A stretch of DNA of 64,000 bases from Armatimonadota bacterium (GTDB lineage Bacteria; Armatimonadota; Fervidibacteria; Fervidibacterales; Fervidibacteraceae): assembly GCA_032160945.1 (NCBI GenBank), contig JAVHTL010000003.1; one strand, written 5' to 3'. Shown here one piece after another: positions 47,349-48,764 of the stretch. A program made the position numbers and the translations under genes. The stretch's first letter is position 1; the number at the start of each line of letters is the position of its first letter. The notes below the pieces were generated by a model. The model was not told the origin of the DNA, made no database searches, and worked only from the letters and a program-made list of their open reading frames with translations.

Positions 47349-48764
47349 ATGGCTTTGAAGACGCGCAAAAGAGCCAGAAAGCGTCGTTCCCGAAAAACCC
47401 GGGAGTGGCTTGAAGAGGTTGACTTTATAGCGCCACTCCCTTTGGAGGAAACTGCATTGATGCCAGAACAGGAAGAAGAAATCGGCATAGAACCGATGCT
47501 TGAGGAAGAAGAGGAAGAGCCTTTGCCAGAAGAGGAGTGGAGTGAATACTGGTTTGAAGAAGAGGAAGACAAACTCCCTGAACTGCCAGAGGAACTCGCC
47601 ACTACCATTGAGGAGATTGAAGAGGCTGAGGCTCACGCTGCTGTTGAAGATGCAATGGCAGCATGGGCAAGGGAATTGCGAAGGCGACCTTTGCTTGATA
47701 AAGAGCAAGAACAGCAACTGGCAAAACGGATGGAAAGTGCAACCAAAGTCCGAAAGTATTTGCTCAGACGCTATGTTGAGAAGAAGTTCGGCATCAAGTT
47801 AAGGAAATGGAAAGAAAACGAGACCTTTGATGATTACTTGACACTCGCACTGAAAAATGTCATCAAAAAATTGCCACCTGAGAGAATGGATGAAATTGCC
47901 CGCCAGTTAGGTATCTCGGAAAGAGAGTGGGCGAGAATGAGCCCTGAACGACGATGTGGTTATTTGGTTGAACTCATTAGCCAGCGCTACATGGAAATCG
48001 CTACCCCTAAGCACATGGAAGACATCAAGGATGGAGAAGAGGCAAGGAAAATCATGATTGAATCCAACCTGAGGTTGGTTGTTTCCATCGCCCGAAGATA
48101 TAGAGGCTATGGCGTTCCGCTCAACGACCTGATTCAGGAAGGAAACATCGGACTCATCCAAGCCGTTGACCGATTTGATTGGCATAAAGGCACAAGGTTC
48201 AGCACCTGTGCTACCTTGTGGATCAGGCAGGCAGTTATACGCGCCATTCAGGCTCAAAGCCAACTGGTCAAGTTGCCTACTCGCATCAGTGAACAATTGC
48301 ACAAAATCAACAGAGCAAGGGAAATCTTGACGCAAGAGTTAGGCAGAGAACCGACGGCTCAGGAATTGTCAAGGTTCATGAAAGTGCCTCGCTCTCAAGT
48401 TGAGGAATTGCTCGGTTACCCACACCAAGTCTCCTCCCTTGATGAACCCGTTGACAGTGAGGAAAAAGTCACACTACTTGATGCCATTGAGGACACATCC
48501 ATTCTCAACCCTGAAGAGGAAATGATTCAGAGAACGCTGCGTGAACACATTGACAAGGCTCTGAACGAATTGCCCGAAAATTACCAAACCGTTATCAAAC
48601 TCCGATATGGGCTTGAAGATGGTCAAACTCACACTTACGAGGAAATTGGCAGGCGATTGGGTTTGTCGCGCCAGCGGGTCAAGCAAATTGCCGATGTGGC
48701 ACTAAAGCGATTGCGACAGCATCCGTTGCTCAGGCAGGCTCGCTTTGACTCTCTCACATCTTGA
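47349..48764 (+). CDS. Divergent RpoD/RpoS-like sigma-70 factor
   Basis: SNLRLVVSIARRY, DLIQEGNIGLIQAVDRFD, LGREPT, SLDEPV, region 4 IKLRYGLEDG..HTYEEIG. Acidic N-terminus and a non-conserved insert of about 95 aa. Confidence 0.9.
   Translation: MALKTRKRARKRRSRKTREWLEEVDFIAPLPLEETALMPEQEEEIGIEPMLEEEEEEPLPEEEWSEYWFEEEEDKLPELPEELATTIEEIEEAEAHAAVEDAMAAWARELRRRPLLDKEQEQQLAKRMESATKVRKYLLRRYVEKKFGIKLRKWKENETFDDYLTLALKNVIKKLPPERMDEIARQLGISEREWARMSPERRCGYLVELISQRYMEIATPKHMEDIKDGEEARKIMIESNLRLVVSIARRYRGYGVPLNDLIQEGNIGLIQAVDRFDWHKGTRFSTCATLWIRQAVIRAIQAQSQLVKLPTRISEQLHKINRAREILTQELGREPTAQELSRFMKVPRSQVEELLGYPHQVSSLDEPVDSEEKVTLLDAIEDTSILNPEEEMIQRTLREHIDKALNELPENYQTVIKLRYGLEDGQTHTYEEIGRRLGLSRQRVKQIADVALKRLRQHPLLRQARFDSLTS

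Follow-up and report, generated by a model that had tools for sequence, protein, structure and literature searches.

A precedent for a phylum-specific sigma factor is given by sigmaA of the Bacteroidetes, an RpoD-family protein without region 1.1 which has changed promoter preferences, still has the aromatics of region 2.3 and is established as the housekeeping sigma of that phylum. In E. coli sigma70 the core RNA polymerase is bound by the region 2.2 residues D403, Q406, E407 and N409 (bioRxiv 10.1101/2020.09.07.285775), and E585 and R588 are base-specific readers of the -35 element (PMC10911233). The melting aromatics Y425, Y430, W433 and W434 are important and have been described as highly conserved across bacterial strains; whether promoter opening is active, by means of a wedge, or passive, through the capture of a base flipped by thermal motion, is under continuing debate (PMC4496690). 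In sigma28 an isoleucine (I79) stands in for W433 and an arginine for W434, and the tyrosine equivalent to Y430 is kept (PMC12784957). Sigma28 thus works without the W433 wedge, which shows that a sigma can initiate transcription after losing it.

The window analyzed here, a stretch of 64,000 nucleotides from an Armatimonadota bacterium of the family Fervidibacteraceae, a Fervidibacter of hot springs (GCA_032160945.1, contig JAVHTL010000003.1), contains an ORF with an ATG start that encodes a complete sigma-70 protein. The gene and its surroundings comprise the following features, residues being those of the protein:

47242..47247, plus strand: -35-like hexamer TTGTTT of the sigma gene promoter (footprint GTTGnTTTT upstream of orthologues)
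47265..47270, plus strand: -10-like hexamer TATAAC, 17 bp downstream of the -35 (orthologue consensus TAtaA)
47291..47308, plus strand: GC-rich hairpin CAACCCC-GAAA-GGGGTTG in the predicted 5' leader (terminator-like scan)
47332..47339, plus strand: Shine-Dalgarno sequence AGAGGTGA (conserved aGAGgtga block, 9-10 nt before the ATG)
47349..48764, plus strand: sigma-factor ORF, 471 aa plus stop (ORF reading, profile matches, metatranscriptome contigs)
47349..47408, plus strand: basic N-terminal peptide, residues 1-20, with 11 K/R (composition; predicted disordered)
47409..47648, plus strand: polyacidic tract, residues 21-100, with 34 D/E, 1 K/R and pI 4.1 (predicted disordered)
47649..47753, plus strand: remodelled region 1.2, DAMAAWARELRRRPLLDKEQEQQLAKRME (weak match to Pfam Sigma70_r1_2)
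47754..48023, plus strand: lineage-specific helical insert at the position of the non-conserved region (NCR), residues 136-225, holding DEIARQLGISEREW
48024..48260, plus strand: region 2, residues 226-304 (Pfam Sigma70_r2, 3.3e-19)
48261..48524, plus strand: region 3, residues 305-392 (Pfam Sigma70_r3, 3.5e-20)
48525..48761, plus strand: region 4, residues 393-471 (Pfam Sigma70_r4, 5.1e-18)

The gene is identical across DNA contigs from three independent hot-spring metagenome runs, with zero variants within the gene, and metatranscriptome contigs cover the ORF at 100 % (47320-48232 and 48277-48930). The sigma gene is intact and transcribed in situ. All strings quoted in the preliminary description were found in the ORF, namely GTRFSTCATLWIRQAVIR (residues 281-298) and DEIARQLGISEREW (181-194) as well as the divergent strings of regions 1.2, 3.0 and 4.2, DAMAAWAREL (101-110), PTRI (310-313) and SRQRVKQIA (440-448). 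Its two codons are likewise placed correctly, with TGT at 48207-48209 coding for Cys287 and TTG at 48216-48218 for Leu290.

Residues of this sigma and of E. coli sigma70 are related by a constant offset of 143. The equivalents of Y425, Y430, W433 and T440 are all replaced, by T282, C287, L290 and I297, as had been read from the region 2.3-2.4 string. W434 (W291) is the sole survivor of the four melting aromatics, and R436 and Q437 are kept too. A comparison with 60 canonical sigmas showed that the promoter-contact residues R584, Q589 and E458 are also retained, and that Y430C, W433L/M, K426R, E585Q, R588K/M, T583S and mostly H455R are changes fixed throughout the family, to which the Fervidibacter clade adds Y425T, T440I, R451K, R554N and L573Y. 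Fourteen positions with a conservation of at least 85 % among the 60 canonical sigmas hold another, invariant residue in the Fervidibacter-type sigma. Within region 2 the core-binding part (2.1-2.2) is intact, the equivalents of D403, Q406, E407 and N409 being kept in DLIQEGN (residues 260-266, invariant in the clade), and the 2.3-2.4 part is remodelled (T282, R283, C287, L290, I297). Region 3.0 reads LPTRISE, with H455 changed to R312 and E458 kept as E315, and the helix-turn-helix (HTH) of region 4.2 reads LSRQRVKQIA, with E585 changed to Q442 and R588 to K445 between the conserved R584 and Q589. Region 1.2 scores 19.5 bits against Pfam Sigma70_r1_2 (PF00140, gathering score 22). Throughout the extended clade its residues D101, M103, W106, E109, L110, R113 and P114-L116 do not vary, giving a motif D.M..W..EL..RPLL that is itself invariant in the clade and has diverged from DPVRMYLREIG.

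Regions 2, 3 and 4 exceed the Pfam gathering scores (68.9, 72.3 and 64.8 bits), the match to TIGR02937 exceeds its cut-off (115.9 vs 42.9), and the protein is best read as a functional member of the sigma-70 superfamily of RpoD-like (group 1/2) type. Even so, no curated sigma family admits the Fervidibacter sigma. It misses the cut-offs of the RpoD models (TIGR02393 RpoD_Cterm 243.3 vs 354; NF004208 246.1 vs 555; NF006666 237.8 vs 572), of the group 2 models (TIGR02394 246.1 vs 378.7; NF005920 252.9 vs 464; TIGR02997 255.8 vs 384.5) and of the group 3 models (FliA_WhiG 119.6 vs 189.6; rpoH 138.8 vs 323.1; SigBFG 134.5 vs 234.35). The other subfamilies of the sigma family likewise stay below the curated group 2 cut-offs, and current annotation pipelines give the subfamily varying labels (RpoD/SigA, sigma-70 family, hypothetical protein). 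The best sequence match in the PDB is M. tuberculosis SigB (7pp4_f, 6.2e-61), the best NCBIfam match is the cyanobacterial RpoD/SigA subfamily, and the best Foldseek matches are Thermus and mycobacterial sigmaA chains, i.e. group 1/2 sigmas in initiation complexes.

With group 1 (RpoD/SigA; Thermus sigmaA 4g7h_F, E. coli sigma70) the Fervidibacter sigma shares the order and fold of its regions (2, 3 and 4, and a putative region 1.2), the DLIQEGN stretch, W434, R436, Q437, R584, Q589 and E458, and it has an insert at the NCR position and a long acidic N-terminus. It differs by having no detected region 1.1, by the replacement of Y425, Y430, W433, T440, H455, E585 and R588, by an insert fold unlike any known sigma NCR and by its neighborhood, as inspected canonical rpoD loci adjoin dnaG whereas the Fervidibacter sigma gene does not. 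Group 2 (M. tuberculosis SigB, RpoS, cyanobacterial SigB-E) resembles the family in that several RpoD-like sigmas occur per genome in the sister genus, but the aligned group 2 sigmas retain FSTYATWWIRQ and RERxRQ, which the Armatimonadota family does not. The W433 wedge is also absent from the group 3 sigma28/FliA, where however the pattern is the reverse of that in the Armatimonadota family, which retains Trp at 434 and has Cys and Leu at 430 and 433; moreover, the Fervidibacter sigma has a putative region 1.2 and scores far higher on RpoD-like than on FliA models.

Residues 1-86 have an AF2 pLDDT <50 and are predicted to be disordered. When the N-terminus was searched alone, no region 1.1 domain was detected, with zero matches to PF03979 or any other Pfam family even at E<=10. 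The N-terminal tract is acidic in Fervidibacter and Caldisaccharidevorator and basic in the sister subfamilies, and the polyacidic tract evolves at a dN/dS of about 0.1-0.24. The helical insert spans 70-90 aa and is present in full form only in Fervidibacter-type members, being shortened in type A and missing in type B. It is modelled with a pLDDT of 85-94 in the full protein and 93.6 alone, and comparison of the model with PDB folds gave no significant match (best E=0.59) and no HTH protein among the matches. The only Pfam match in the insert covers 12 residues resembling Sigma70_r4_2 (E=0.068, 13.3 bits vs a cut-off of 25.7). The HTH-like motif that had been proposed here finds no support as a functional HTH, this short sub-threshold match standing against a confidently predicted fold without an HTH or other relative in the PDB.

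The replacement of the aromatics is not private to one genome. FSTCATLWIRQ was found in 56/56 clade clusters and FSTYATWWIRQ in every non-clade match, and an exhaustive search of 1.84 billion proteins gave Y-W-W in 127 of the 139 pattern-matched sequences among the 150 best representatives; the exceptions include five clade or sister representatives (three C-L-W, two C-M-W). Cys and Leu are fixed in the 56 clusters and in 29 genes, with Met instead of Leu in type B. Among the 29 genes the Cys codon is TGT in 14 and TGC in 15, and Leu is encoded by five synonymous codons. With a dN/dS of about 0.02-0.035 in regions 2-4, regions 4.2, 3.0 and 2.4 constrained as tightly as region 2.2, and a dN roughly three times lower than that of the neighboring PYNP gene, the sigma is under very strong purifying selection and conserved like a housekeeping gene. 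Conservation of Cys/Leu and dN/dS across orthologues, which the preliminary description had named as a check, came out on the side of a maintained protein.

One copy of the gene with conserved synteny was present in 16/16 species genomes of Fervidibacter and Caldisaccharidevorator in which the GTDB scan detected it, and the sister genus has two paralogues of the family per genome. Other Armatimonadota carry short relatives of 282-345 aa that adjoin murD; as these form only about 20 clusters, they are accessory there. Cys and Leu also occur in Fimbriimonadaceae and groundwater Armatimonadota genomes of ~69 % GC, which are probably mesophilic. An Abditibacteriales sigma carries the Cys, too. Judged from the sequences found so far, the lineage appears restricted to the phylum Armatimonadota. 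Of the alternative sigma class put forward in the preliminary description, a distinct, conserved RpoD-like lineage with differing melting and recognition residues is upheld, and treating it as a separate class is reasonable.

The different promoters expected for such a class were not seen. The promoter footprint of the sigma gene was derived from an alignment of 17 orthologous sequences, with one exception (L007) due to a misplaced start codon. T-12 and A-11 are preserved in the orthologous promoters, and GGGG lies directly 5' of the -10 in most of them, though not in the gene of the window. The leader hairpin, located between promoter and ribosome-binding site, varies in sequence among orthologues. 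The most enriched hexamers upstream of Fervidibacter genes are GAGGTG/AGGTGA, and the canonical TTGACA-N17-TATAAT is enriched there as well (11 vs 0.9 +/- 1.0 in shuffles), the sequence that a canonical region 4.2 and 2.4 would be expected to recognise. Dyad and hexamer enrichment revealed no distinct promoter class, only the Shine-Dalgarno sequence and the promoter of the sigma gene itself. GGGG-TATAAT was discarded as a separate class, being restricted to that promoter, and an apparent fourfold excess of TTGACA in the window reflects codon context (125 observed vs 109 expected under a third-order Markov model). The promoters seen, those of the sigma genes included, are of the ordinary TTGnnn-N17-TAnnnT type, and this also holds upstream of type A and type B genes. 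We infer altered specificity from the residues only, since no non-canonical promoter class was detected, even at the genes of the family.

We searched for a canonical rpoD in the same genome and its relatives. Screening the 2.28-Mb run of organism A with the gene at 80 % likeness returned only the gene itself and a 40-nt region 4 match in an ECF-like gene; as 0/56 non-clade sigma genes reach 80 % over at least 38 nt against the gene, this negative result carries little weight. Region 2 searched against the community runs yielded, apart from a few unrelated fragments, only Cys/Leu orthologues from co-occurring Fervidibacter species, none of these sequences tracked the depth of organism A, and almost no community member's canonical sigma was caught. 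About 507 kb of Fervidibacteria loci contained neither dnaG nor a second sigma. Several candidates were rejected: P0057 is the RpoD of a member of the Clostridiales and owed its high score to an internal duplication, P0123 and P0125 are chimeric and contain region 2 twice, the tetranucleotide usage of P0098, which comes from the same Great Boiling Spring metagenome, correlates with that of Fervidibacter at only 0.37-0.45 (vs 0.91-0.98 within the genus), P0113 is of groundwater origin, and the signature of P0415 is non-specific. A charged-minus-polar pre-screen for hyperthermophile-like canonical sigmas gave no discrimination. F. sacchari is in cultivation; a search for its pure-culture runs returned metagenomes only, and sigma factors are absent from the text of the F. 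sacchari paper. Altogether, no canonical RpoD was found from any Fervidibacteria genome in searches that were insensitive or mis-targeted. F. ginsengisoli reportedly has three rpoD genes (PMC4072686).

An artefact of sequencing or assembly, or a pseudogene decaying in this genome alone, can practically be dismissed as the explanation: we found nothing in favour of it, and it is refuted by identical contigs in independent runs, by orthologues in 56 clusters and by 29 genes of GTDB species genomes, as well as by an intact frame, transcription and purifying selection. The Tyr/Trp that the preliminary description would have taken as a sign of error or private decay is found neither in the orthologues nor in the independent contigs, which show Cys/Leu. 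Its other proposal, a sigma-like decoy that binds core RNA polymerase and does not initiate transcription, would agree with intact core-binding residues alongside the loss of three melting aromatics, but is very improbable, for the DNA-contact positions, kept or substituted, are all invariant across the clade, regions 4.2, 3.0 and 2.4 are constrained like 2.2, and the decoy has neither a precedent nor an adjacent partner gene. Mere sequestration of the core would need no invariant DNA-reading residues, and it is the invariance of Q437, W434, R584, Q589, E458 and the substituted residues at such low dN/dS that leaves the claim unsupported. An improbable explanation, too, is that growth at 65-87.5 C, as known for F. 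sacchari (PMC11535203), made wedge and stacking dispensable, promoter DNA melting readily in such heat, and allowed the aromatics to relax in an otherwise canonical protein. Y430 substitutions in E. coli are indeed most deleterious at low temperature (PMC1919498). Relaxation predicts drift, however, and instead Cys/Leu stayed fixed through saturating synonymous change; the same pair recurs in the ~69 % GC Fimbriimonadaceae and groundwater genomes and the Cys in the Abditibacteriales sigma, solved Thermus sigmaA chains align as canonical, and substitutions are also found in readers of the -35 and the extended -10, which are not involved in melting.

It is conceivable, albeit rather unlikely, that the protein serves Fervidibacter, and perhaps the class Fervidibacteria as a whole, as principal (housekeeping) sigma and reads ordinary TTGACA/TATAAT promoters despite having lost Y425, Y430 and W433. 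Its layout is group-1-like, with acidic N-terminal tail, putative region 1.2, NCR-position insert and regions 2-4, Thermus and mycobacterial sigmaA are the best fold matches, and the gene is single-copy, syntenic in all 16 recovered species genomes and very strongly constrained; its own promoter and many others are canonical in type, R584, Q589, Q437, W434 and E458 are retained, and neither the 2.28-Mb run of organism A nor the 507 kb of loci showed a canonical sigma. Yet those searches had almost no power, the melting aromatics are otherwise highly conserved (PMC4496690), the curated RpoD C-terminal model is missed by >100 bits, in other Armatimonadota the relatives are short, seldom found and accessory, and the changed -35 readers E585/R588 fit poorly with perfect TTGACA hexamers (PMC10911233). 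We consider it doubtful that Fervidibacteria do without a canonical RpoD and that a sole principal sigma with altered readers and lost aromatics serves housekeeping from ordinary promoters; in a weaker variant, the invariant Cys in the -11A pocket might make promoter opening redox-sensitive. The reading that we favour, and think probable though by no means certain, is that of a functional RpoD-like sigma whose promoter-contact surface has been remodelled and which acts as a second, non-housekeeping sigma beside an undetected canonical RpoD. Speaking for it are the failure to reach any curated RpoD, RpoS or SigB model (RpoD_Cterm 243 vs 354), the accessory short relatives, the two paralogues in the sister genus, the three rpoD genes reported for F. 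ginsengisoli and the enrichment of canonical TTGACA-N17-TATAAT upstream of Fervidibacter genes. It is opposed by primary-sigma traits (long acidic N-terminus, insert between 1.2 and 2.1, housekeeping-level conservation), by the finding of canonical promoters only, even at the family's own genes, and by the fact that no canonical Fervidibacteria RpoD turned up, insensitive or mis-targeted as the searches were.

The protein would bind the core like any sigma70 and place regions 4.2, 3.0 and 2.4 on the -35, extended -10 and -10 DNA. Because both the -11A-stacking Tyr and the Trp wedge are missing, the opened -10 strand is probably captured passively, via W434, the altered pocket and thermal breathing; the idea of passive melting is weakened by the fact that Cys/Leu is shared by probably mesophilic family members of ~69 % GC. 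Its element preferences or opening kinetics are probably unlike those of canonical RpoD, and the Fervidibacter form would have gained accessories resembling those of primary sigmas, i.e. the polyacidic N-terminal tail and the NCR-position insert.

Current models of the way in which promoter melting is nucleated by bacterial RNA polymerase give Y430 and W433 a central place. An RpoD-like sigma that occurs in nature under strong selection, keeps the RpoD scaffold, W434 and Q437, has Cys/Leu at 430/433 and carries altered -35 and extended -10 readers is a ready-made test of what these two residues contribute, and as the family spans hyperthermophiles and probably mesophilic genomes, the effect of temperature can be separated from that of the residues. 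As a second sigma, the protein would define an uncurated sigma subfamily specific to the Armatimonadota; if a bacterial class should turn out to rely on it as sole principal sigma, the melting aromatics could no longer be assumed to be universal.

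The open reading frame at 47349-48764 encodes a member of an uncurated RpoD-like sigma factor family, which is found only in Armatimonadota and has a remodelled melting and recognition surface. The features of the locus are as follows.

47242-47247, plus strand: -35-like TTGTTT, conserved sigma promoter element
47265-47270, plus strand: -10-like TATAAC, conserved sigma promoter element
47291-47308: GC-rich hairpin CAACCCC-GAAA-GGGGTTG in the predicted 5' leader, between promoter and ribosome-binding site
47349-48764, plus strand: sigma factor ORF, intact, 471 aa
48207, plus strand: TGT codon of Cys287, read from the sequence
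48216, plus strand: TTG codon of Leu290, read from the sequence
50400-54602, minus strand: 1400-aa ORF directly beyond argH, no Pfam match at E<=1e-5

All strings quoted in the preliminary description were found in this ORF. Pfam Sigma70 regions 2, 3 and 4 clearly exceeded threshold, and region 1.2 narrowly missed it (19.5 vs 22 bits). The closest curated models are RpoD, RpoS and SigB-type; the protein stays far below all specific curated cut-offs (e.g. 243 vs 354 for RpoD_Cterm) and passes only the generic sigma-70 superfamily model. Its nearest solved relatives by sequence are SigB of M. tuberculosis and the SigA proteins of Firmicutes, Thermus and mycobacteria, and the substitutions are directly visible in the alignments to these proteins. 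Using E. coli sigma70 numbering (regions 2-4 are offset by a constant 143) we found the changes Y425T, K426R, Y430C, W433L, T440I, H455R, E585Q and R588K, with F419, F427, W434, R436, Q437, E458, R584 and Q589 kept, as are the core-binding residues D403, Q406, E407 and N409.

The identical sigma sequence is present in one metatranscriptome and in 14 or more independent DNA runs from hot springs or sediment, contigs of three DNA runs show no variant inside the gene, and RNA contigs of 100% identity span 47320-48232 and 48277-48930. Searching 5.8 billion protein clusters yielded 55 more clusters with 53-87% identity, originating from Fervidibacter and other Armatimonadota MAGs, cultivated F. sacchari included. 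FSTCATLWIRQ was found in 55/55 of these clusters, and FSTYATWWIRQ in 64/64 of the matches listed from outside the clade of Fervidibacter-type orthologues. Among 29 genes from GTDB species genomes the Cys codon is TGT in 14 and TGC in 15 cases, and the Leu position uses five synonymous codons, with Met in one subfamily. Because dN in regions 2-4 is 0.04-0.09 (Nei-Gojobori) and dS is saturated, dN/dS is about 0.02-0.035; sigma dN is about 3x below that of the syntenic pyrimidine-nucleoside phosphorylase gene. The preliminary description had suggested checking Cys/Leu conservation and dN/dS in orthologues, both of which point to retention under constraint, and had allowed for sequencing error or private decay. 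As the sequence is identical across independent runs and the orthologues read Cys and Leu, the window sigma is neither. The gene is intact, transcribed and strongly constrained; the core-binding surface of its sigma product is complete, and the promoter-contact residues are replaced by an alternative set that is fixed.

Y425, Y430, W433 and W434 are conserved aromatics required for strand separation; Y430 stacks on the flipped -11A, W433 is the wedge taking its place, and Q437 reads -12 (PMC4496690; PMC1919498). E585 and R588 read -33 base-specifically, R584 reads -31, and E458 and H455 contact the extended -10 element (PMC10911233). With these roles, all three promoter-reading modules are therefore touched by the remodelling; the core-binding surface and part of every reading module are left intact. 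The window sigma would form a holoenzyme and would bind -35, extended -10 and -10 DNA in the usual geometry. Since the Tyr stack and the Trp wedge are absent, opening would probably depend on a -11 base that flips spontaneously and is then captured, with W434 and the altered pocket assisting. Sigma28 functions without the W433 wedge (PMC12784957), the pattern being C-L-W in the window family, Y-W-W in groups 1/2 and Y-I-R in group 3. High temperature cannot by itself account for the aromatic loss, as the signature is common to members from high-GC, probably mesophilic Armatimonadota. A sigma-like decoy sequestering RNA polymerase, one of two earlier proposals, is disfavoured because the DNA-contact positions are all as constrained as the core-binding positions.

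An exhaustive search of 1.84 billion representatives gave, among the best 150, Y-W-W in 127 of the 139 motif-matched proteins; C-L-W and C-M-W occur in the clade and its sister group, with a few isolated variants besides. When one genome of each GTDB species was scanned with the clade profile, three groups emerged. Sixteen Fervidibacter/Caldisaccharidevorator species carry one gene per genome (465-477 aa, GTR-FSTCATLW), always with the phosphorylase gene upstream. Two family genes per genome are found in Ca. Thermosaccharophagus (three species) and the MAG SKYB128; type A sigmas read GCR-FSTCATLW (416-435 aa) and type B sigmas DHYDWRQGTR-FSTCAVMW (493-604 aa). Short forms of 282-345 aa, DH[FY]DWRKGTR-FSTCATLWI[RK]Q, come from Fimbriimonadaceae, UBA5419 and a groundwater armatimonadete and form only ~20 clusters in a search with a profile of their own. 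A murD-like gene lies directly upstream in 4/4 short-form loci examined (L031, L033, L050, L064); its ORF ends ...GDWV.LSPCGASFDMF.NF..RG..F in these four genomes from other Armatimonadota classes, a conserved synteny unlike the phosphorylase-sigma order of Fervidibacter. An Abditibacteriales sigma reads FSTCAVHWIEQ. No subfamily reaches a curated specific family. Compared with 60 canonical sigmas, the family-wide signature comprises K426R, Y430C, W433L/M, position 444, T583S, E585Q, R588K/M and mostly H455R, to which the clade adds R448Q, R451K, R554N, L573Y and E591A. Type A (loci L020-L023, proteins P0047-P0056) carries Cys at the Y425 position as well (KGCRFSTCATLW), and the resulting CxxxxC pair around the -11A pocket could be a disulfide or a metal site.

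The AlphaFold2 model, built on 41 aligned sequences, is confident for residues ~100-355 and 385-460 and predicts disorder for residues 1-86; the best fold matches of the whole model are sigmaA of Thermus and of mycobacteria, both from initiation complexes. The first 20 residues of the N-terminus form a basic peptide, and the next 80 include 34 D/E and one K/R. This N-terminus is acidic in Fervidibacter and Caldisaccharidevorator and basic in types A and B; no region 1.1 domain was detectable in the protein. A segment of 70-90 residues between regions 1.2 and 2.1 is restricted to Fervidibacter-type proteins, being shortened in type A and absent in type B. Modelled alone it is a compact helical module (pLDDT 93.6, pTM 0.83), for which the PDB holds no significant structural relative (best E 0.59). 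The string within it that had been described as HTH-like is modelled as two helices joined by a turn, the second of six residues. As its match to the sigma region 4 helix-turn covers 12 residues and is sub-threshold, we read the insert as lineage-specific, located where the sigma non-conserved region lies, and not as a DNA-binding HTH. The strings and residues initially reported are confirmed and the interpretation holds in part, as a distinct RpoD-like family; the decoy and the HTH are not borne out.

Alignment of orthologous upstream regions revealed a conserved sigma promoter in which a 17-bp spacer separates GTTGnTTTT from TAtaA(T/C), the latter keeping T-12 and A-11. Most species have GGGG directly 5' of the -10 element; this extension was found at the sigma gene itself only. 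The hairpin at 47291-47308 may be a structural element of the leader or may terminate transcription of the gene upstream, and some orthologues have other hairpin-like sequences at the same position. In 137 upstream regions of Fervidibacter loci near-consensus TTGACA-N17-TATAAT is strongly enriched (score >=10.5: 11 sites vs 0.9 +/- 1.0 shuffled and 2 on the reverse strand), therefore some Fervidibacter holoenzyme reads canonical promoters. TTG-N20-TAnnnT occurs 14 times vs 4.7 +/- 2.0, and no separate promoter class assignable to the window sigma was found in the Fervidibacter upstream regions. Type A and type B genes lie behind ordinary promoters (TTTACA-N17-TATACT and TTGAAA-N17-TATAAT). Across both strands of the window TTGACA appears ~4x over-represented with 125 copies; codon context explains this, as a 3rd-order Markov model predicts 109 and 61/74 sense-strand copies have one codon frame in common.

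The neighbours are unrelated housekeeping or metabolic genes (UDP-glucose dehydrogenase, phosphorylase, argininosuccinate lyase, the 1400-aa protein, a histidine kinase), with no anti-sigma candidate among them. F. sacchari has many unusual carbohydrate-active enzymes, so the 1400-aa ORF could be an uncharacterised one. Short metagenome contigs match parts of argH (region 49321-50400) at 90-95% with hundreds to >1000x depth, probably from abundant related Fervidibacter strains; one contig of run X3 skips 495 nt (49408-49904).

On balance we incline to regard the window sigma as a second, specialised RpoD-like sigma. That it is the principal sigma, which its primary-sigma-like accessories, single-copy core-gene status and very strong conservation favour, seems less likely. 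A hidden canonical RpoD is favoured because the literature calls the melting aromatics highly conserved among bacteria (PMC4496690), three rpoD genes are reported for F. ginsengisoli (PMC4072686), the window sigma is very distant from RpoD models, the short forms in other Armatimonadota are rare and accessory, the sister genus carries the family in duplicate, and perfect TTGACA hexamers fit E585Q and R588K poorly. In a 2.28-Mb run of the same organism, a nucleotide search nearly blind to canonical sigmas returned only an ECF-like second sigma gene. This gene, on an 8347-nt contig of run X2, matches window 48570-48609 over 40 nt, and its translated flanks (...RRILDEAVQN and ...EGLSTKEVA) resemble region 4 of an ECF-type sigma. 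The canonical RpoD candidates from protein searches each belonged to another organism or were assembly chimeras. Several high-scoring canonical sigma entries of public protein collections (P0057, P0123, P0125) have an internal duplication of region 2 or regions 3-4 that inflates their homology scores, and are probably assembly or gene-call chimeras. Tetranucleotide correlation is 0.91-0.98 among Fervidibacter loci, despite GC of 0.475-0.578, and <=0.8 against contigs of other phyla, which makes this signature a handy attribution test for hot-spring contigs. The finding is of moderate interest at present; its interest would be high if it is true that the genome has no canonical RpoD.
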